Shown here one piece after another: positions 19,747-57,500 of a DNA stretch of 64,000 nt. The notes under the pieces are model-generated. The model was not told the DNA's origin. It was given only the letters and a program-made list of their open reading frames with translations, and did not search any database. Position 1 is the stretch's first letter. Each line of letters starts with the position of its first letter. The stretch comes from a virus. The DNA lies in IMG/VR virus record IMGVR_UViG_3300045988_118131. One strand, given 5' to 3'. The position numbers were made by a program, and so were the translations under genes.

Positions 19747-21159
19747 CTATGCCTCAATTAACATATATGATCTATATGGGTTAAATACTGCAACTCCAGA
19801 ATAACCCCAGTTAATAAGTTTACTTGCTGCAACAGCAGAAGAAACTACTCCAGAACTTAAACCGTCTAAACCACCAACTCCAGGGAATCTATTAGAAATA
19901 AAGTCTCCTCCTTTAAGAGTGAACATCTGCAAAGCAGGTTTACCGTCTACGGAGTCAGCTGTTAAGTCAATAAATACTCCAAAGGCTTTTCTATCCCATT
20001 CATAAGATAGAGCACGGTCAACTTGGAATGTAACTTGGTTTCCAGCAAATTCATAAGACTGGAATGTAGCACCTACCTCTAGATATTTATTCTTTGCAGT
20101 AGAGTACATATAAGTTGAACATGGTTTAAATCTAGACAAATATTCTGAAAGAACATTTTGAACCATTGTCCACATAATCTCATTGCAAATGAAGATGTAT
20201 TTGTTTCCAATTGGTTTTTCAGACTTTTGAACCATTTCATTCATAGCAGTCTGGAATACATTAATAGTCATTTTGTTGAAGATATACTTACCGCAATATC
20301 TTTCGATTTGTGGAAGAACACCATCTCCAATATAAATTGGTCTACCAGTATCAGGGTCTTGAATAGTTGCTTTGCCGTTTTTATCAACGTTAGTTCTATT
20401 GAACATTGAACCGTTGTTACGAGCATATAAGAAAGAGTCTAACAATTGTTTTTCTTTCTTATCCATTTTGTAGATTGTCGGAATAAGAGATTTCTTATCC
20501 TTTCCTTCAGCTACTTGGATAAATACATTTTCCATAGCAGCAAACTGAGCTGAGTAAGATACATCAACACGGTGTGTAGTAATATATCCTCTGTGTGTTT
20601 CAACATTAGATTGATATTTGATGTAACCTTCTTCGTGCATTTCTGGCATAGCATTAGACTGGAATCTAGTAGTCATACCTACCTGGCAACCGTCTAGATC
20701 AAGAACTGAAGAATAATCGTTGTCGATTAGTCTTACTGTATATTCCCAGAAATCATCAGCTTTTCTAATAGGTCTTGAAACAACCTGACATTGCTGACGA
20801 GTTGCATCAATTTTAAAGATGTCATACTTTTCGTAGTATCTTTCTTTAAAATGCATAATAATATCTTCTCCTGCTGCACCCTGTTCTGGAACTGCAGCAA
20901 ATTCTACACGTTTAATGTAGTTAGTTTCGATGTCCCATTCAAAATAAGGAGCTTCTAATGATTTGTACTGTTCTTTCTTATGATCCATATAGAAAACATT
21001 TCTAAGACCTTCTGTAAGGAAAGAAGTAGTTAAATATGGATACATACGTGACATTACACCTAAACGATGTGGTTTAGCACCTACGAATTTATAAAAATCT
21101 TCGTAAGTCTTAGTATCGTTCATGTTTTGTTTGTTGGATACGTAACTTGCTACTAGCAT
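19747..21159 (-). CDS. putative major capsid protein (470 aa)
   Basis: Uninterrupted 470-aa ORF with no TGA, directly downstream of an acidic scaffold-like gene and followed by a strong terminator. Assignment rests on size and position; no homology search was possible. Confidence 0.55.
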   Translation of the reverse strand: MLVASYVSNKQNMNDTKTYEDFYKFVGAKPHRLGVMSRMYPYLTTSFLTEGLRNVFYMDHKKEQYKSLEAPYFEWDIETNYIKRVEFAAVPEQGAAGEDIIMHFKERYYEKYDIFKIDATRQQCQVVSRPIRKADDFWEYTVRLIDNDYSSVLDLDGCQVGMTTRFQSNAMPEMHEEGYIKYQSNVETHRGYITTHRVDVSYSAQFAAMENVFIQVAEGKDKKSLIPTIYKMDKKEKQLLDSFLYARNNGSMFNRTNVDKNGKATIQDPDTGRPIYIGDGVLPQIERYCGKYIFNKMTINVFQTAMNEMVQKSEKPIGNKYIFICNEIMWTMVQNVLSEYLSRFKPCSTYMYSTAKNKYLEVGATFQSYEFAGNQVTFQVDRALSYEWDRKAFGVFIDLTADSVDGKPALQMFTLKGGDFISNRFPGVGGLDGLSSGVVSSAVAASKLINWGYSGVAVFNPYRSYMLIEA

Positions 21160-40049: not shown

Positions 40050-42842
40050 TTAGTCTTCTTCACCTCATTCTAGTAGAGATTCCGCGAACTTTTTAGCTCC
40101 TTTAATAGTTTCGGAATCTTTAGTATCTCCGTTAGTTCCTTTAAGTTCTGTTTTTGCTGCTTTTACTTTGAAGTCCACTGAACCGTTTACAGTGTCATTA
40201 CCGTTTAACTTAGTAATGGCAGCTTCATTAGCTGTGACACGTTCTTCTAATTCTGTAGTACTTGTAGCATTTTCCTTTATCTTATCTTCTAATTTCTTTA
40301 AAGTATTATAGTCAGCCGAAGCTCCACCTTTTATACCTGCTATGGCATCAGTGTTAACCTTAATTTGTGCGTCTAGTTTAACATCGGCATCATTTAAACT
40401 AGTAGCGTCGGCTATATAATTTGATTCTGAATTAGCTACATAAGTATCTGTAGACTGTCCAGTAACTGCTTTTCTTGCATTATCTGCATCAGTGCCAGCT
40501 TTTTTAGCGTCAGCAATAGCTGAGTCAATTGCAGACTGGTTTTTAAGTCCTGTTAATTTAGCAATCTCTGTATCTAATACCAAAGATTTACCTACTTCCT
40601 TATCTACTTTTTTGTCTAAAGCTGTCTGAGTAGCTGTAGAAACAGGAAGATCAGCAGGAGCTAGGTTTTCTACACTACCTAAACCTACTTGTTCTTTTGT
40701 TACTTCGTGAGGATTATCTGTGTCAGCTACGTGAGTATTTAATTTATCAGTAGTAGCTTTCCCTTTGCTACCTTCATAGGCAGTTCCAGCAACTTCTCCT
40801 AATACTAGATTACCAGAAGTAATTTGAATAAGACCTGATGTGTCTCCACCCCAACGATATTGCTTGTTACCATCAGCTACAGCAATATAAATCTTTCCAG
40901 CTTCTGGAGTTGTTCCAGCATCCACTGCTGTTGTGTAAGTAGCTTTAAATAATTTCTTCTCTGCAGTAGCATAGAATAATTGTCCTACTACTAAGCCAGA
41001 TGTTGGAATATTAGCTTTCGCAGCTACAACTTTCTGAATTTCAATTACGTCATCAACGTAACTTGGAAGTTGAGTAGAAGGAACTTTACCATCAGCACCA
41101 AGACTTGCAACACCGTCTGCCTGACCTATCTTAGAGCTGTCAATCTTAGAATCTACAAGCTCTTTTAATACTTTACCTTGTTCTGCAGATAGAGCTTTAT
41201 CGGCACCACCAGTAGTTAAATCATTTACAATCTGGATAATAGTTTGATTTCCGACGTCAACACGTTGCCATCCAGAATAGTCTCCTGAAGTAATTTTAGA
41301 AACATCTTTTAGAATATATACTGCAGGTTTACCTTCATCGTCAGCAACTACTACCATCATACCTTTATAGTAGTTCTTACCGGAGTAAGTACTAGCTGCA
41401 ATAAGGTCTGCCTTTGTAGGAACTAGAGAACGAGCATCTAGAGGAGCTTGACCTCCTGGCTCAAAGTTAACAGCGAATGCAGCAACACCCGCAGGACGAT
41501 TACCAGTAGCAGCAACAGCCATAGGTTCACTGTCCATAAACGGAACAGTTGTGCTATTCATAGCAACCTTACGGAATACTTCGTCAGTTATTTCCTCACC
41601 TTCATATGTATATGGTTCAGAATTTAGCATTCTTGAAACATTAGCAACAGTAAATCTTAACTGTAGTGCTCCAGATAAAGCTCCTTGTGTAGTTAATTTC
41701 TTATATGCTACATCATTGCCTTGAACTGATATATTCCCTGCATCAGAAATTACATAGTTGGCTGAACTAAATACTTCCCATTTACCAGATACGGTATTAA
41801 AGAATTCTACTTTAGTTACATTCTTTTGAGAAGGGAATTTAAATTCAAGACGTGTTCCAGTAGAAGCTTCAGAAGCAAATTTAGCTCCGATTAAAGTATC
41901 AGTCCATTTTTTTAACGGAAGTTTAGTATCTGGAGTAGGACCAGACGGCATACTACTTTCTCCGTTACCTGTAGAAGCATTAGCTCCGTTACAAAAATAT
42001 GGATAAGTACCAAAGATTGAAGTGCTTGCTGTTACACTGCCTGCAGGTAGTGGGTTGGGAGTTACACTAGCTTTATTACCTTTAGATGTTAACAAGGTAT
42101 CACCTTGACCGTAGTTAACAGTTAGGTTATAAGTCATTTGTCCTAATGTGACTTTTTGGGAGGCGTCTAAGGCAGCAGAACCTAATTTGATGCTACGACC
42201 AGTTTCTGCACCAGCACGGTTTTTATTTGCTTGCCCTACTACAGTACAAGTACCTCTATTAAATGACACGTTAAAATCACTTTCGGCTCCAGGAGCTGCC
42301 TGTCCAACTTCATAAATACCATTAGAAGCCCAACTACCTTTAGGAGAGATTGAACATGATGGGTTTTGAACAGTAGGCTGAATTTCTTCAAAAAGAATAT
42401 CATCAAAAATTTGGGACAGTGTCTTTTTCTCCAAATCTGATACCTTTGTGCCTTTAGCTAAACCACCATGTTTTTCTGGAGTAGTTAATTCATCAGGTAA
42501 TTCTGATGTGTACATCAAATTAGCAGAAAGTGTGTCGTCAATACTATCTAATTTAGCTTTATCTGCTGCAGACATCAAACCTGCCTGTTGTGTGGTAGCT
42601 GTAGCAATAGTAATTGTGTGTTGATCTCCACTAGCATCCGTAAATTGAATAGACCCATTATCTCCAAGCTCTACTGATACTAATGATTTTTTAAGTTTCT
42701 CGGCTAAGGTTCCGTCTATTCCATAGACCTTACCGTTCATTAAAATTTCGCTGGTGTCTTGAGCGAAATAGACTGCATCTAGATGCTTACTAGCAGCATC
42801 ATAGGAATTTTTACTTCCTCTAAAAAATTTAACTCTCGCCAT
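40050..42842 (-). CDS. long tail fiber protein (930 aa)
   Basis: Track ORF 40065..42863 (TTG). I prefer the ATG at 42842 (MARVKFFRGS...AVYFAQDTSEILMNGKVYG adaptor motif). TGA at 40065 is followed by a 4-codon tail to TAA at 40050. Confidence 0.75.
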
Positions 42843-42855
42843 AAAATTTTTAAAT

Positions 42856-43833
42856 TTAATCAATTACGTCGTGTCAATCTATACTTACATATAATCCATC
42901 ATTTTCATCTGTCAACAAATTACCCTCTTTAGAGGATATACTAACAGTTGAAGACATTTTAGCTAATGATATATAATATGTATGTACTATATGTTCATCT
43001 AATGTACTATACAATTTATAAAATAAAATATAATAATTTCCACCCTTATTAACTGGGTTTGAGACTGAGTCGTATTTCTTTCAATCTACATAATTAGGAG
43101 GATATTGTTGTATTTGTTCTTCTGTTATGTTTTCTATATACAATCCATAGAGTAACTCCTTGTTAGGAGACTGAAATTTACCCAATAAGTTCTCCTCAGA
43201 TATGGATTTTCCGTATAGTTTTATAAACTCTCCATCTCTTATAACTTGTATATTACCAGTCAGACCTTCTGTATCTATTGATATAATCTTATTATCCTTA
43301 ACTTTTACATCAGCAGAAACTACATTATCTTGGCTAGTAGAGAAGACTATTGTGTTCGTACTTTTAAACGTACAAATTTCGGCTATTTTTTCTAGATTAA
43401 CAAATATTTTATAGCCACTCTTAAAATACATTATAAGAATAGTATCTCCTTCTTCTATTTCTACTCCAGTTTTAGCTGCTTCTAATACATCCTCTGCGGT
43501 AGCTTTGCGAGTTATACTACTAGTAATATAATCTCCTGTTTCTACTCAAATAGTGCTTATTATCTCGTTTTTTAGATTTCTAAGATATATAGGTCTTCTG
43601 TTATCGACAATCTCCCCATATTCCAACTTAGCTCCAAGTTTGTCTATTTTATCTACTTGAGATTTATAAGAATCTGTAAAATTATTATCTGTATGAACGT
43701 ATTCTGGATCCACTATGTATCCAGAATCGTTCTCTAACTCGCTTAATTTAGTAGGAATCTTTACTCTTTTTTTGATTGTCATGCACCCTCTAGTTGTGGT
43801 AACTACAATTGTATTATCGTCATTAATTTCCAT
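42856..43833 (-). CDS. fiber-associated protein (325 aa)
   Basis: Track ORFs 43546..43839 and 43081..43431 plus a downstream tail are in one frame. TGA at 43546, 43081 and 42874. ATG at 43833, TAA at 42856. Motif PTKLSELENDSGY...HTDNNFT. Confidence 0.65.
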
Positions 43834-47142: not shown

Positions 47143-49329
47143 TTAGTATTTTACTTTATTATTGTGAGGATTCCCATCATACATTTGAGCCTCTTCTACT
47201 TCTACTTTTTGTTTGTTAGTTTCAGCTACAGAGTCCTTGTATGCTTTATCTGTTCTAGCTTTATACCAATTAATTTCAGTCTCGGATTTTAGTCTATCTT
47301 GTTCTAATTTTATCTTAGCTTCATTAAGTGCTTCGAGCCTTCCATTAAGAGATTTATTCTCTGACATTAATTGCTGCAATTGCTGTTGAGACTGTTCTAA
47401 TTGTTGTTGTATTTGACCTACCTGATTTGCTTCCTGTCGTTTCTTCTTTAACGAATTTCCAACATTATTTCGTAGTTCTGTCATACTCTTTACAGTAAGA
47501 GCCTCTATTAAATCTTCTGGATCGAGAGCTTGAGCTTTAATTAATTCTGGAACTATTTGTTTTATAGTCTCCATATCTCTAACTATATTAGAACTAGCTT
47601 CAATATTAATGTCGTAGTCAGTTACAGTAAAATACTCTGGAAGAGCTGTAAATACTTTTACTCCTTTATCTCCAAGTATTAAGGTCCCTTTTAAACCTTT
47701 TTTCCATACTTTTTTAGCCACATTTAAGCAATCTACTAATAATTCTGTTGTTAACAAATCCATTTGATGAGTAAATTGCTTAGTAATAGTAAATGAGTTT
47801 TGTATTCCAACTTTTACATTAGTAACAGCATCTTTCTGCTGTATTCCATTTAGTCTTTCCCTAAATACTCCAGTTATAGATGAACAAGTATTCTCTATTC
47901 TGTCTATAGCCATTTCAATAGCTTCAATAGTCTGCGCTTTTACAGTATCGTCAAATCCAGTAAATGCAGTATTATTATTAAACGCAATTCCATCCTGAGA
48001 GGTATCTATTAGAGCTACTCCAGCTTTCTTTTTGTATTCAAGCCATTTCTGAACTCTCTCTGGAAGTTTAGTTCCCAAAAATTGTGGAAGCATAGATACA
48101 TCCAACCAATCCCCCACAGTACCACTAGAAGCTAATAAAGAGTCTCTATAAAAATGTAATACATCATATTTATCTTGCAGATTTGCACATGCCAATACTA
48201 ATGAATACGGTTCCGAGCTTCTTGTAGAGAAATATATTCCGCTAGTTGATAAGGTACAAAAAGTAGGATTATCCTGACTTCTTACTACCTCAACAGGTTC
48301 ATTTTGGGTAATATATAATGTATTTCCAATTTTTACTTGTTCGTATCTTTGCATTTTGAAATCAGAATCAGTCTCTACCCATTCCACTGTATATACTGGA
48401 ATTAGCCTATTAGTTAATACACCATACTGTTCGTTAGGGAGTCCTGGAGTTAACTCTCTTCCAGCTTCTAGTCCATCAGAAGCCGGAAATCCAGTACATT
48501 GGTTATTATAGCTCCTAACATATATAGACGAACTGTCTGTTACAGTCTCATACATATTTTCTAAATCTTCTATATCTTCTTCAGATAAATGTTTTCCATA
48601 TGTATTAAGAATTTGGGTTTTAGTTAGCCACTCTCTAACTACAGCTCTATAAGACAATTTTACGTAATTGGAACTAAAGTTTTTATCTATAAAAGTATTT
48701 AGAGGATCTAAGATTTTGATTTCAATGTTATTTCCTGATTTAGATGGTACTACTTTATAAAACGCGTAACCAGTGATTAGTAAGTCCAAAAGCAAAATTC
48801 TTAGTTTTTCTATTAGATCTGTGTCTCTTGAATTTAAAATATACTGAATAACATTTTGAGCAGCTACCTCATACTCGGAAATAAAATTCTGGTCTATATC
48901 TTCTATGATTTGATTTATTTGACCCTCTATTGCTTTATCGGTAATATTACGACCATTTAAAAAGGTAAGGATCGAATTATTCAAATGATTCTTAAGATAC
49001 GTATATACATCTTTAACTATTTTAAGATGTTTATCTCGTTCTATATTACTAATCGTTTTAGAATCCTTGCAAGTTATTTTAGGGATAATTGGTGTTTCCA
49101 AAAATTCTCCTACAATAGCGTCCACATGTTTTCTGATTAATGGAATAAATTCAAGAGAAGTTGGATTTCCTATTCCAAAGTTTGATTCTAAATATCGAAA
49201 TTGCTCTGGATCTCTAACTCCGTTATAGTAATTATAGGCTTTTTTCAATGTATATTTTGGGAAAACTAATTCATTAATAGCTTTGTTAGTAAAGTCTATC
49301 AACTCGTCTTCAGTCTTTTTCTTAGCCAT
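47143..49329 (-). CDS. putative portal protein (728 aa)
   Basis: Uninterrupted ORF with no TGA, one small gene downstream of TerL. Assignment rests on size, position and the N-terminal KKAYNYYNG pattern. Confidence 0.6.
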   Translation of the reverse strand: MAKKKTEDELIDFTNKAINELVFPKYTLKKAYNYYNGVRDPEQFRYLESNFGIGNPTSLEFIPLIRKHVDAIVGEFLETPIIPKITCKDSKTISNIERDKHLKIVKDVYTYLKNHLNNSILTFLNGRNITDKAIEGQINQIIEDIDQNFISEYEVAAQNVIQYILNSRDTDLIEKLRILLLDLLITGYAFYKVVPSKSGNNIEIKILDPLNTFIDKNFSSNYVKLSYRAVVREWLTKTQILNTYGKHLSEEDIEDLENMYETVTDSSSIYVRSYNNQCTGFPASDGLEAGRELTPGLPNEQYGVLTNRLIPVYTVEWVETDSDFKMQRYEQVKIGNTLYITQNEPVEVVRSQDNPTFCTLSTSGIYFSTRSSEPYSLVLACANLQDKYDVLHFYRDSLLASSGTVGDWLDVSMLPQFLGTKLPERVQKWLEYKKKAGVALIDTSQDGIAFNNNTAFTGFDDTVKAQTIEAIEMAIDRIENTCSSITGVFRERLNGIQQKDAVTNVKVGIQNSFTITKQFTHQMDLLTTELLVDCLNVAKKVWKKGLKGTLILGDKGVKVFTALPEYFTVTDYDINIEASSNIVRDMETIKQIVPELIKAQALDPEDLIEALTVKSMTELRNNVGNSLKKKRQEANQVGQIQQQLEQSQQQLQQLMSENKSLNGRLEALNEAKIKLEQDRLKSETEINWYKARTDKAYKDSVAETNKQKVEVEEAQMYDGNPHNNKVKY

Positions 49330-53849: not shown

Positions 53850-54410
53850 TTATTGTTTAATTGAAGAAAATCTTTCAGTAAGTTCTTCATTGATTACTAC
53901 TAAAACATTATTTTGACTAACAACCCATAGAGCTTGTCCCAAGAATGGTGTTGGTCTTTGAGTTCCGTTGATAAAAATAATATCATCCCCCGGTCTTACA
54001 TACTTAACTTCTGGACCTACAGCTATTACCTCTGCATAGCCTACAGCCATTCTAGCAACTTCCTTTTCTCCAGTTTCGTGAGAAATATAAGTTCCGTCAT
54101 ATACTGGAATAATAAGTCCAGATTCTGTAGTTTTTACTTGATCCCAGGGATTTTTATTATACATTCTAACTAAAATATTTCCATTAGTAGGAAGGATTTC
54201 TAGGTTAGTTGCTTGTTCTTTCACCTGTTTAGAACGTTCGAGTTCTTTATCTATATTTTTACAGAATGATTCAGAAGCCTCTTTAGTAGTTTCATTAAAT
54301 GTCTTAATAGCACTTCTTCTTTCTTCTTCACTAAGTTTTTCTGCTCCAATCATACTAACTGCACTTCCTCCCATTACTAAATCCATTCTTCCGTTATTTA
54401 ACATAATCAT
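53850..54410 (-). CDS. GroES/Cpn10-like co-chaperonin domain protein
   Basis: Track ORF. ILVRM...TESGLIIPV...GYAEVIAVGPEVKYVRPGDDIIF follows the GroES pattern. Confidence 0.45.
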   Translation of the reverse strand: MIMLNNGRMDLVMGGSAVSMIGAEKLSEEERRSAIKTFNETTKEASESFCKNIDKELERSKQVKEQATNLEILPTNGNILVRMYNKNPWDQVKTTESGLIIPVYDGTYISHETGEKEVARMAVGYAEVIAVGPEVKYVRPGDDIIFINGTQRPTPFLGQALWVVSQNNVLVVINEELTERFSSIKQ

Positions 54411-54423
54411 TTAAATTTTAAAA

Positions 54424-54645
54424 TTACCATAAATCATTAGGGCAATGTTCTTTATACACCCTAGTTTTTGCATCTAATAAACAGCCGCATATCCCACACC
54501 ATGCTCCATCTTTGTCTGAACATTTATTACAGATCTTTATTCTGCTATTTCTCATTGCTTCGTTTTGACCTGTAAGTTTGTACCAAAATCCTATAACTAT
54601 GTGTTTTAGTTTTATTATAATACTTCTCATTTTCCAGCTGGACAT
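54424..54645 (-). CDS. Cys-rich zinc-ribbon-like small protein
   Basis: Track ORF with CNKC...CGICGC...HCP..W. Paralogous to the upstream small CDS. Confidence 0.5.
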   Translation of the reverse strand: MSSWKMRSIIIKLKHIVIGFWYKLTGQNEAMRNSRIKICNKCSDKDGAWCGICGCLLDAKTRVYKEHCPNDLW

Positions 54646-54854
54646 TTCTCAGTTTTTAATTTTGCTTTTAGTTTTATTTTGCACCCACATCCTTTTACAT
54701 AACCATCTAAAGGATGTATAGAGACATCTCCAGTTTGAGGATTGATATATAAACTATTGCTGCATATTCCTCCATTATTTGGAGAATATATGGGACAATT
54801 TTCACATATTCGTATTCTGGATTCTCATAGAGTTTGATTAATTCTTCCTTCCAT
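54615..54854 (-). CDS. Cys-rich zinc-ribbon-like small protein (79 aa), paralog of 54424..54645
   Basis: ATG at 54854. Frame open with TGA at 54825 and 54627, TAA at 54615. CENC...GICS...GCGC...KCPAGKW. Not in the track because of the TGAs. Confidence 0.5.
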
Positions 54855-54973
54855 TTTTACTTATATTTATAATTACAGTTGTGGCATTTGTAAAAGTTAT
54901 TTGATAACATCAATGCGGATTATTCGGCATATGGTTTGTTCTATTAATTATTTATTGCCACTGTATGTAATTA

Positions 54974-56863
54974 TTAAAATTCTATTCTTTTTCTCTTGGA
55001 TGCCCTCTCTTCTTGTATAAGCTCTTTTCTGTATTGAGATAGCATTCTTTCTACCTCGTTCTTTAAGTATTCTACTTCATGTGTGGATACGTTTCCATCA
55101 TGATCAAAATATACAAGAATTAATTTCTTTATATTAAATTGAGGATTATTTTTCTTAATCATCCAAGCGTAGGTACTTAATTGTAGAGTGTAATGCATGA
55201 AATTACAATCCATTAAATTGTTTAGAGGAAACTTCATCATAGCATATTTTTTAGCAGCTGGATCGTATCCAGATTTCATTTTTAATTCCTTATTAGTGTT
55301 ATGAGTAACAATCATTGATTCTCCAAATAGGAAAGTATGAGATGGACTATCCACCTCTAAACACTGTGTAGCTATTGTATCAACTCTCTCTACAGAAACA
55401 ATATTTCTAAATGAATGTTTGTCTATCAATGGAAAATTAATATCCTGATTTCTTACTAGGAATGGATTTAATCCATTAGTCGAGAAACATACATCCCATC
55501 CTTTAAATATCTTTCCGTTACACCTTTTATCAACTTCAAATAAAGTAGCTTTAATGCCCAACGTACTAACTAATTTAATTAAATCCCTAGCTTGCCACTC
55601 CTGAGTCGTTCCCATAACAAATCTTTTTCTACCCTCATGGTAGTAGCCATCCGTATCCATTAAACCTCTTAGTAAGTCAAGCCTTTGTTGGAATGATGCT
55701 CTCATATATAAGTCAGGAATAAATTTGTTATTTAATAATTCTAGATGATTTAGTTCTTTTCTGATACCATATATGGTTCTCATCTCTGCATGGGCTTCAT
55801 CAGATAGATTATCACCGTATGTATATCCCCTATTTGATATTTCTTCCCACACTTTCGGATTTATATTGGTTAAAATACCACAAGATTTAGAACCGTCTCC
55901 CAACCAACATCCTAATACATAGGGGTCAATCGGCAAATCAATTTCTGGCAGATTTAGAGGTTTACTGTTAAGTATCTTAGGGATATTATAAGAAGTTCTA
56001 GGTTTCTCTATAAGCCACTTAGCAATTTCTTCTGTAGTCATAATTCTATCACTAAAGGTCTTATCTGGTCTTCTGAATGAAATTAACCATCTATGCTCGT
56101 GGTCTGCAACTATAGATTCCCCATTGTCAAATGTAATTTTATAACATGGATTATAATGTATATCTGACTTATGGATAACTTTTGTGATGTTACCATCCCT
56201 ATCAAATATTTCATCACCTTCTTTAATATCACCTATAGTAGTCCATCCTGTTTTAGTAGGAATTACTGTATCTAAAGGTAATCCTTTATAGTCGATAATA
56301 TAAATATCATTTCCGTCCTTGACTAATAAGTCTATTTGTCCTGCTAATCTAATGTGCCCATCTTCAGATACTCTAGAAATTAAATACTCAGGATATACTG
56401 CAGATTCTAAATCTAATGGAGTGTAGTTTTGCTTACAAACGAATTTTCCTCCCAATCCATAAGATTTTAGAGAATAACTAGAAGCTCCAGAGTAAAACTT
56501 TTTTTCCATAGCTGCATGAATTTTAGTTCCTCTTTCACAAGATTCTCTATTAGTCTTAGCCCATTCATCTAATATGTCTTGCTGGGTAGAATTAAAAGTA
56601 ACCTCGTCAATATCATATAATTCTAATACTGAGTTATCCCATTTCTTAGATTTCAATAATCTCGGCTTTTCCATTGCTGCAAATTTTTGAGAACCTATTA
56701 ACCTCTCTAGTGCTTTGTATTTACTCCAAAAATCTTGATCAAAAGGTTGCTCAAATCTACCTATTAAGGTAGTTACAGAAATAAACTTTTGACCCTCATC
56801 ATTCCAATATTGATGAAATTCATCATTATAATTTACATTACCATTTCTCTTATCAACTTGCAT
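54974..56863 (-). CDS. PD-(D/E)XK (RecB/Cas4-like) nuclease interrupted by an intein
   Basis: Track ORF of 629 aa. The extein joins ...GQIDLLVKDGNDIYIIDYK to TNKELK..., restoring a D...(D/E)xK-type IIDYKT motif. Confidence 0.7.
   Translation of the reverse strand: MQVDKRNGNVNYNDEFHQYWNDEGQKFISVTTLIGRFEQPFDQDFWSKYKALERLIGSQKFAAMEKPRLLKSKKWDNSVLELYDIDEVTFNSTQQDILDEWAKTNRESCERGTKIHAAMEKKFYSGASSYSLKSYGLGGKFVCKQNYTPLDLESAVYPEYLISRVSEDGHIRLAGQIDLLVKDGNDIYIIDYKGLPLDTVIPTKTGWTTIGDIKEGDEIFDRDGNITKVIHKSDIHYNPCYKITFDNGESIVADHEHRWLISFRRPDKTFSDRIMTTEEIAKWLIEKPRTSYNIPKILNSKPLNLPEIDLPIDPYVLGCWLGDGSKSCGILTNINPKVWEEISNRGYTYGDNLSDEAHAEMRTIYGIRKELNHLELLNNKFIPDLYMRASFQQRLDLLRGLMDTDGYYHEGRKRFVMGTTQEWQARDLIKLVSTLGIKATLFEVDKRCNGKIFKGWDVCFSTNGLNPFLVRNQDINFPLIDKHSFRNIVSVERVDTIATQCLEVDSPSHTFLFGESMIVTHNTNKELKMKSGYDPAAKKYAMMKFPLNNLMDCNFMHYTLQLSTYAWMIKKNNPQFNIKKLILVYFDHDGNVSTHEVEYLKNEVERMLSQYRKELIQEERASKRKRIEF
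55298..56284 (-). mobile_element. intein (aa 194-522) with LAGLIDADG homing endonuclease, class-3-like
   Basis: Block A GLPLDTVIPT (Gly1). Block B GESIVADHEHRW. LAGLIDADG motifs LGCWLGDGS and LLRGLMDTDGYY. Block F ATQCLEVDSPSHTF. Block G MIVTHN followed by Thr+1. Confidence 0.8.
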
Positions 56864-56864
56864 A

Positions 56865-57500
56865 CTAGTTTTCCATTTGTTTTTTAACTTGGTTATAATC
56901 TAATAGTATTGCTAACCTTTGTATTCTCGGAGATACTGTTTTCATATAGTACCCTAGATTATATTGTGGTTTTGTTTTATATAAAACTATAACCATTCCA
57001 ACAGGGTCACTGACTCCTTCTATTGGATAAAAAGCTACAGCAGAAGCATTACATAATCTAATTTTTCTATATAATTTAGGAAAGGACTCTTTTAATTCGC
57101 CTATACTGTCCGCTCTTAAATACCTTAAATTATGTATTTTGATAAGCTCCTCTCCATAATTTATGTAGCTTAACTCCCTAAACTCTTCTCCCCACATAGG
57201 CTCATCATCTTTAAATTTTTCAGCTAAGAATGTTATATATTTATATGAGAAACCTTGAGAGCTGTGATTATTGTTGTGATAATTTAGCAATATTACATTA
57301 GTCGCGTCTGGATCACTTATAAGTATATACTGTATCTGTGTATTAATTGTAGGCGTTATACGTTCAGTATAACGTTCCGCTTCCATCTTCTCCAATCTCT
57401 CTTTACTAATTAACCTATTAACTACGTTAATGTTAGAAACATTAATGTTAAGTATAGCTAAAATTAGTAAAATAAGAAAGGCTCTATTCTCCTTACTCAT
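56865..57500 (-). CDS. hypothetical membrane-anchored protein (211 aa)
   Basis: Track ORF with a hydrophobic N-terminus. TAG stop is 1 nt before the next ATG. Confidence 0.55.
   Translation of the reverse strand: MSKENRAFLILLILAILNINVSNINVVNRLISKERLEKMEAERYTERITPTINTQIQYILISDPDATNVILLNYHNNNHSSQGFSYKYITFLAEKFKDDEPMWGEEFRELSYINYGEELIKIHNLRYLRADSIGELKESFPKLYRKIRLCNASAVAFYPIEGVSDPVGMVIVLYKTKPQYNLGYYMKTVSPRIQRLAILLDYNQVKKQMEN

Follow-up and report, generated by a model that had tools for sequence, protein, structure and literature searches.

A very probable mobile class 3 intein beginning with glycine in the PD-(D/E)XK exonuclease gene of a crAss-like gut phage

Introduction

A stretch of viral DNA of 64,000 nucleotides (nt), IMG/VR record IMGVR_UViG_3300045988_118131 (the whole stretch is called the window below), contains a nuclease gene whose reading frame is interrupted by 329 codons in the middle of the active site of the encoded enzyme. 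Is this insert a class 3 intein that starts with a glycine, and does it move between phages? An earlier note, made from the letters of the window and their translations, had proposed such an intein on the basis of a Trp-Cys-Thr triplet (WCT) in blocks B, F and G, had recognized two LAGLIDADG motifs within it, and had regarded class 3 inteins as rare and glycine at position 1 as unusual. We consider it highly probable that the insert is a mobile intein of class 3 that encodes a LAGLIDADG homing endonuclease and is located in a phage RecB/Cas4-like PD-(D/E)XK exonuclease directly after the lysine of a D-Y-K/T motif (here and below, a slash between residues or bases of a sequence marks a splice junction or insertion point). 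The proposal of a class 3 intein was borne out, but the element turned out to be neither rare nor unusual.

Results

Exact borders from an intein-less allele

The gene and its three parts are arranged as follows.

54974..56863, minus strand: precursor, a PD-(D/E)XK exonuclease interrupted by the intein; one uninterrupted open reading frame (ORF) of 629 amino acids (aa) plus stop.
56285..56863, minus strand: N-extein, aa 1-193, with nuclease motif II, GQID (Asp178), and motif III, D191-Y-K193.
55298..56284, minus strand: intein of 329 aa, aa 194-522, identified by its absence from the empty allele L005, its class 3 intein matches and its fold.
54974..55297, minus strand: C-extein, aa 523-629 plus stop, holding the QxxxY motif of RecB-family nucleases.

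The sequence around the insert reads ...DGNDIYIIDYK(193)/GLPLDT...MIVTHN/T(523)NKELKMK... In order to define the borders, the two exteins were joined in silico and the resulting 300-aa protein was searched against 5.8 billion proteins. The top match was a natural protein of 300 aa (P0121, 74 member sequences) that runs ...IIDYK/TNKELK... and differs from the spliced form by 1 aa. Its gene, on contig L005 (ENA ERZ28580683 scaffold_21260), has the empty site GGAAATGATATTTATATTATCGACTATAAG/ACTAATAAGGAATTAAAAATG and shares all but 4 of its 903 nt with the spliced window gene. Shifting the border by one residue in either direction fails to give the P0121 product, and therefore Gly194 is residue 1 of the insert, Asn522 is its last residue and Thr523 is the +1 residue. 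The empty allele thus fixes the GLPLDT start with its non-nucleophilic Gly1 and the THN end followed by Thr+1, both as the earlier note had read them, and the restoration of IIDYK/T that it expected from splicing is what this natural allele displays. The coordinates 55298-56284, the length of 329 aa and the placing of Cys501 at 55361-55363 were exact when residues were converted to nucleotides.

Hundreds of further 300-aa homologues are also without the insert, and the 120 best full-length matches all have it. As for other inteins, the insert lies in frame within a conserved host protein that has insert-free homologues, and the host sequence on its two sides is contiguous. Two odd alleles were set aside. 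P0126 (437 aa), considered as a carrier of a mini-intein, has no HINT domain, and in it the C-terminal part of the nuclease is either duplicated in tandem or chimerically assembled; P0128, on a 1-kb contig, is a chimera with a histidine-kinase ATPase fragment.

The insert divides the active site of the nuclease

The 629-aa ORF matches Pfam PDDEXK_1 at aa 146-194 (3.9e-6, exceeding the curated cut-off), and its in-silico spliced form matches phrog_298, annotated 'exonuclease' (2.8e-24). The host protein has the D...(D/E)-x-K and QxxxY motifs of RecB/Cas4-like PD-(D/E)XK phage exonucleases, and the residues in question lie on both sides of the insert.

56330-56332, minus strand: Asp178 of nuclease motif II.
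56285-56287, minus strand: Lys193, the -1 residue and catalytic Lys of motif III.
55181-55183 and 55169-55171, minus strand: Gln561 and Tyr565 of QxxxY.

Asp178, Asp191-x-Lys193 and Gln561-x3-Tyr565 are all invariant in an alignment of 81 sequences that comprises intein-containing and intein-less homologues, and Lys(-1) is present in 120 of the 120 intein-containing homologues. Since the intein splits the nuclease active site in the precursor, splicing would be required for an active 300-aa enzyme.

The profile of Cas4 proper (TIGR00372) scored 14 bits at aa 555-613, below its cut-off of 65, and in a search that was not exhaustive the four-Cys quartet of the Cas4 iron-sulphur (Fe-S) cluster was not seen in the host nuclease. 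'Cas4-like' is a label given by other annotators to allelic host genes, nothing more. Searching the spliced extein against PDB sequences (phmmer, E up to 1) gave no match, so that we can name no close relative of known structure for the host nuclease.

The class 3 residues are complete and invariant

The splicing blocks of the insert are the following.

56267..56284, minus strand: block A, GLPLDT; Gly194 (56282-56284) is intein residue 1 and is non-nucleophilic.
56081..56122, minus strand: block B, GESIVADHEHRWLI; Asp254 is B:7, His257 is B:10 (56093-56095) and Trp259 is B:12 (56087-56089).
55325..55372, minus strand: block F, ATQCLEVDSPSHTFLF; Cys501 is F:4 (TGT codon, 55361-55363), the predicted initiating nucleophile.
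55295..55312, minus strand: block G and C-terminal splice junction, MIVTHN/T; Thr520 is G:5, His521 is G:6 and Asn522 is G:7.
55298-55300 and 55295-55297, minus strand: Asn522 (G:7) and Thr523 (+1).

Conservation was counted in the 120 homologues, which are 57-100% identical to the window protein. No substitution occurs in this set at Gly1, Thr6, Asp(B:7), His(B:10), Trp(B:12), Cys(F:4), Thr(G:5), His(G:6) or Asn(G:7) (Gly1 accordingly in 120/120); at +1, 119 homologues have Thr and one has Ser.

Alignment to known class 3 inteins, which the earlier note had proposed as a check, supports its assignment of Trp to B:12, Cys to F:4 and Thr to G:5. The top phmmer matches in the PDB are the class 3 inteins Mch DnaB-1 (6rix, 1e-21) and Msm DnaB-1 (6bs8, 1.1e-20). 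In the HMMER alignment, intein residues 64, 66, 308 and 329 fall on His65, Trp67, Cys118 and Asn139 of Msm DnaB-1, which are its B:10, B:12, F:4 and G:7 residues (PMC5222942), and Thr520 aligns with the Thr of THN. Gly1 aligns with Ala1 of Mch and Msm DnaB-1 (A-LALDT) and with Pro1 of the mycobacteriophage Bethlehem 'DnaB' intein (MP-Be). BLASTP aligned the insert to MP-Be over its full length (30% identity, E 3e-38), with His65, Trp67, Cys320, Thr339, His340, Asn341 and Thr+1 in register. The MP-Be intein was absent from the DnaB-like gene of Bethlehem, gp62, where it was sought, and was located in gp11, adjoining the portal gene; Pro1, Ser62, His65, Trp67, Cys320, Thr339, His340 and Asn341 of that sequence agree with the published numbering (PMC2807308).

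A non-nucleophilic residue 1 is typical of class 3 but not obligatory, as Catera gp206 has Ser1. It would also suit a class 2-like route, in which no block F thioester would form, Thr523 itself would attack the Lys193-Gly194 bond and Cys501 would have no more than a structural or activating role; a +1 Thr is permitted in class 2 (KlbA) inteins as well. We consider this route very improbable. The WCT triplet is complete and invariant in the 120 homologues, the nearest sequence relatives are all class 3, and class 2 inteins are known from archaeal KlbA proteins only and are without WCT (PMC2807308, PMC3196547). Moreover, mutation of Cys320, His65 or Trp67 stops splicing of MP-Be (PMC2807308).

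A two-motif LAGLIDADG domain

Between its splicing segments the intein contains a predicted endonuclease domain.

55409..55963, minus strand: LAGLIDADG homing-endonuclease domain, about aa 301-485 (Pfam, Foldseek and conserved motifs).
55889-55924, minus strand: LAGLIDADG motif 1, PYVLGCWLGDGS, aa 314-325, with Asp323.
55643-55681, minus strand: LAGLIDADG motif 2, LDLLRGLMDTDGY, aa 395-407, with Asp405.

The two motifs are intact, as the earlier note had stated: of the acidic residues, Asp323 is present in 120/120 and Asp405 in 118/120 homologues. Pfam LAGLIDADG_3 (PF14528) matches aa 395-446 (7.1e-6, exceeding the curated cut-off). An AlphaFold2 model of the whole precursor, built on the 81-sequence alignment, has a mean predicted local distance difference test score (pLDDT) of 85. 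Foldseek matched this model to PI-SceI (1.9e-17), to PI-PfuI and to I-DmoI (about 1e-5), and target TM-scores of 0.80-0.83 were obtained with Mch and Msm DnaB-1, in agreement with the HINT fold of inteins. The predicted fold is thus that of a two-motif LAGLIDADG protein of the monomeric type, and the domain is a putative endonuclease.

In the 120 homologues, mean identity to the window is 66-76% in the three parts of the intein vs 57-58% in the exteins; for the endonuclease domain alone it is 68%, vs 58% for the exteins. A related allele on a 170,821-nt contig, P0129 (325 aa, 6 member sequences), agrees with the window protein in every residue as far as LAGLIDADG motif 1 and then reads ...GCWLGRRF followed by a stop, which makes it a frameshifted dead copy or a sequencing error.

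Alleles with decoupled histories

The empty allele is one of three states found at this site in near-identical extein backgrounds; the others are the window intein lineage and a second lineage, 78% identical to it in nucleotides. The second lineage lies on contig L010 (ENA ERZ27303534 k141_1009752, protein P0004), which is near-isogenic with window positions 54674..57163. Exteins and flanks differ at 6 of 1503 nt, whereas the inteins differ at 213 of 987 nt. The divergence amounts to 19-25 differences per 100 nt throughout the intein and ends at its borders. For this pair of inteins, non-synonymous (dN) and synonymous (dS) divergence by the Nei-Gojobori method are 0.10 and 1.75, respectively, giving a dN/dS of 0.06, with synonymous sites nearly saturated. 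By domain, dN/dS is 0.04 in the two splicing segments and 0.07 in the endonuclease domain (dS about 1.7), which marks strong purifying selection on both. Because so high a dS and so low a dN/dS are found in a near-identical background, L010 and the window hold two old intein lineages, both under purifying selection, in one recent phage background. The comparison points to active homing and cassette replacement.

The wider set of alleles shows the same independence of intein and host gene. When all 7,021 pairs among the 120 homologues are considered, the correlation between intein and extein identity is weak (r = 0.39); some pairs have inteins that are 99-100% identical in exteins of 55-59% identity, and in other pairs the opposite holds. 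The G+C content of the intein (33.5%) matches that of the window (32.9%), so that the element is no recent arrival from a source of different composition.

Of the four nucleotides at which the empty allele differs from the spliced gene, three fall in the 43 nt upstream of the junction and the fourth is 66 nt downstream of it. Those upstream include the third base of the Lys(-1) codon, AAG vs AAA. These differences could mark a co-conversion tract or reflect target-site variation. We do not take them as proof of co-conversion, for which they are suggestive, because 5 more differences are clustered separately in the upstream gene, some 140-160 nt before the nuclease gene.

The same data bear on whether the element is still alive. 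An inactive class 3 relative is on record, Arsp-FB24 (PMC3196547), the pseudo-intein of Arthrobacter FB24 Arth_1007, and like the window intein it starts with Gly1 (PMC2807308). The insert might be a dead or decaying intein of that kind, with a non-functional nuclease, and the truncation of P0129 by a frameshift inside LAGLIDADG motif 1 would fit such decay. However, Arsp-FB24 is without His(B:10) and Cys(F:4), whereas the window intein keeps every catalytic residue; these residues are invariant or nearly so in the 120 homologues, and dN/dS is 0.04-0.07 across the intein. In addition, intein-containing alleles keep the Asp, the Asp-x-Lys and the QxxxY of the nuclease, which is sensible only if splicing restores the enzyme. 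We therefore give a dead intein hardly any credence.

Loss of the endonuclease alone is the most plausible partial alternative to a mobile intein. Under this explanation, splicing would be intact, the endonuclease would be inactive, the intein would be inherited vertically and the allele patterns would have arisen by ordinary phage recombination. Mosaicism is general in these phages, the cluster of differences upstream of the gene in L005 being an example. Against this, both acidic LAGLIDADG residues are conserved, the domain has a dN/dS of 0.07 at a dS of about 1.7 and is better conserved than the exteins, and empty, first-lineage and second-lineage alleles occur in near-identical exteins with a divergence that breaks at the intein borders. 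An inactive endonuclease is thus unlikely, and a mobile intein with a predicted homing endonuclease remains the preferred reading.

Relatives at the same site and the frequency of Gly1

A megablast search of the gene against 50,697 phage records gave no match, and relatives were found by protein-level searches only. In tblastn searches of the same records, many annotated phages had the same architecture. The insertion point is identical in Streptomyces phage Frankenweenie gp79 (VDWK/GLALDT...VTHN/T), Mycobacterium phage Traft412 gp72 (VDYK/GLDLDT...PTHN/T), Pseudomonas phage Rollin (FDLK/GLPLGT...PTHN/T) and the C1-cluster Mycobacterium phage ScoobyDoobyDoo gp195 (VEFK/ALAVDT...PTHN/T). Frankenweenie, Traft412 and Rollin belong to other phage lineages but share with the window the site, the pattern (D/E)xK/GL.L.T...THN/T and 35-42% intein identity. 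Their records say 'exonuclease', 'Cas4 family exonuclease' or 'hypothetical protein', and one notes 'intron'. To our knowledge, these three genes have never been analysed or tested as inteins. Allelic genes are inconsistently annotated in general, the intein usually being unmarked: OQ921725 gp79, MZ820085 gp195, OR577172 and DQ398053 gp206 have the labels 'HNH endonuclease', 'exonuclease ... and intron', 'terminase large subunit' and 'hypothetical protein' among them.

Members of this allele family have been described from C1 mycobacteriophages, in which 40 inteins were described in a 'RecB-like/Cas4-like' nuclease (Kelley et al. 2016, PMC5050341). These occupy a single insertion point in the PD-(D/E)XK motif and were grouped with class 3 (PMC5050341). 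MP-Catera gp206 is the same gene, and its intein is cited as splicing efficiently (PMC3196547, citing Tori & Perler 2011). Catera gp206 aligns with the window protein at 34% identity through both junctions (VELK/SLACST...PTHN/T). Catera and the C1 inteins are like the window intein in their host, a PD-(D/E)XK phage exonuclease, in their site between the Lys of (D/E)-x-K and Thr, in WCT, in the THN/T ending, in the two-motif LAGLIDADG domain and in similar length. They differ in residue 1, which is Ser in Catera, Ala in ScoobyDoobyDoo and Gly in the window intein. The phages differ as well, G+C-rich actinobacteriophages on the one hand and an AT-rich (33% G+C) crAss-like gut phage on the other, and the exteins are barely alignable beyond the catalytic motifs. 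The window element extends this known, experimentally validated class 3 intein allele family to a new phage lineage.

Other characterized class 3 inteins are more distant in position. MP-Be, the prototype (PMC2807308), also has a LAGLIDADG domain and is similar in length (341 aa vs 329 aa), but it has Pro1 instead of Gly1 and Ser instead of Asp at B:7, and its insertion point follows a Gln in another host protein, so that it is non-allelic. Msm 6bs8 and Mch 6rix DnaB-1 (PMC6195587, PMC7664689, PMC5222942) are the closest solved structures. Their block A is ALALDT vs GLPLDT in the window, with Asp at B:7 in both, and their flanks are GVGK/A...THN/S vs DYK/G...THN/T, so that both have Lys(-1) and Ser/Thr(+1). 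Unlike the window intein, they are mini-inteins without an endonuclease, have Ala1 and interrupt the P-loop of a bacterial replicative helicase.

When 1.84 billion cluster representatives (clusters at 50% identity) were scanned exhaustively with HMMER, 18,244 clusters proved to be related to the window intein with an E value of 1e-3 or less, and 3,486 with one of 1e-30 or less. With this number, and with the same insertion site occupied in many annotated phages, the rarity that the earlier note had ascribed to such inteins is unsupported. Residue 1 was counted in the best 150 representatives, which contain 166 long intein domains. Gly1 together with WCT and Thr+1 was found in 108 of the 166, and in the domains with an alignable N-terminal junction residue 1 was Gly in 117, Ala in 15 and another residue in 7. 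Glycine, which the earlier note had thought unusual, is therefore the dominant first residue among the closest relatives.

Class 3 inteins were first noted to concentrate in P-loop sites (PMC2807308). In the best 150 proteins, Lys occupies -1 in 132 of 139 alignable junctions, before Ser/Thr, in P-loop and nuclease hosts alike. These shared flanks, Lys(-1) and Ser/Thr(+1), may have eased a jump between P-loop and nuclease sites. The P-loop-hosted relatives read G-x-G-K/A...THN/S, and a smaller set follows Glu (..GE/ALxxxx...THN/S). Several proteins of 1,100-1,900 aa among the best 150 hold 2-5 such inteins. In the window itself, tblastn with the window intein and MP-Be found no second related intein.

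The window as part of a crAss-like phage

Structural genes and the neighbours of the nuclease gene identify the surroundings of the element.

19747..21159, minus strand: Crassvirus-type major capsid protein (PF23898, 1.3e-12).
40065..42863, minus strand: 932-aa protein with tail-fibre repeats.
47143..49329, minus strand: portal protein (phrog_6547, 7.9e-48).
53850..54410, minus strand, just downstream of the nuclease gene: 186-aa ORF with a weak match to a GroES co-chaperonin (phrog_3188, 8.4e-5).
54424..54645, minus strand, just downstream of the nuclease gene: Cys-rich 73-aa ORF (phrog_13558, 4.2e-11), whose counterpart on related contigs has a faint DUF6171 match.

Sequence identity of the portal is 26-28% to its Crassvirales counterparts and 52-60% to those of unannotated human-faecal contigs. 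For most other large ORFs of the window, neither PHROG nor Pfam gave a match. The window corresponds to the block of structural genes of a divergent crAss-like gut phage. Close homologues of the nuclease sit on contigs of 160-185 kb, and the phage probably belongs to the large-genome Zeta group of Yutin et al. 2021 (PMC7886860).

Discussion

Several points weigh against the view that the window holds a mobile class 3 intein. We infer the splicing chemistry, the endonuclease activity and its target from homology and conservation. We found no experiment in the literature on a class 3 intein that naturally starts with Gly; in the relatives that have been tested, residue 1 is Pro, Ala or Ser. The AlphaFold2 model has a pLDDT below 50 at residues 193-195 and 523-525, which are the two splice junctions. 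Finally, some metagenomic alleles may be chimeric assemblies (P0126, P0128), and these could inflate the mismatch between intein and extein histories. The last concern applies poorly to L010, with its sharp borders and intact ORF, and these two features speak for a genuine main mobility signal despite the chimeras.

A splicing scheme modelled on MP-Be, Dra Snf2 and Msm DnaB-1 (PMC2807308, PMC5222942) can be proposed for the window intein. The gene would be translated into the 629-aa precursor with a divided nuclease active site. The thiol of Cys501 (F:4), aided by His257 and Trp259, would attack the Lys193-Gly194 bond and form a block F thioester-branched intermediate, from which the N-extein would be transferred to the side-chain oxygen of Thr523 (+1), giving a block G branched ester. 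Cyclization of Asn522, with His521 assisting, would release the intein, and an O-to-N acyl shift would create the native Lys193-Thr523 bond and complete the D-Y-K-T motif of the exonuclease. The freed intein may then act as a monomeric LAGLIDADG endonuclease, which in a co-infection would cut the intein-less sequence ...GACTATAAG/ACTAATAAG..., and repair from an intein-containing copy would spread the element (homing).

The alleles suggest a further, more tentative possibility, to which we give slightly less than even odds: at this D-x-K/T site in natural populations of human-gut phages, diverged class 3 inteins whose endonucleases are functional would time and again invade and displace one another. 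If so, the three-state site would offer a naturally replicated system of very large size in which to follow the intein homing cycle and the competition between inteins, and Gly1 would be the selected first residue for the D-x-K/T site instead of a neutral variant of Ala1 or Pro1.

The current view of intein function is unchanged by these data, and the three-state polymorphism is a by-product that introduces no new principle. For annotation, the 629-aa ORF is a 300-aa exonuclease with a class 3 intein, for which labels such as 'hypothetical protein' and 'HNH endonuclease' would be wrong. Protein engineers might also take an interest in a compact class 3 intein with Gly1 and a K/T junction. For the phages themselves, an intein allele first seen in actinobacteriophages is now found in abundant AT-rich crAss-like phages of the human gut, and class 3 inteins with Gly1 are widespread. 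The empty site and the two old lineages that have been swapped in it are a natural record of homing and replacement, which could serve research on intein mobility.

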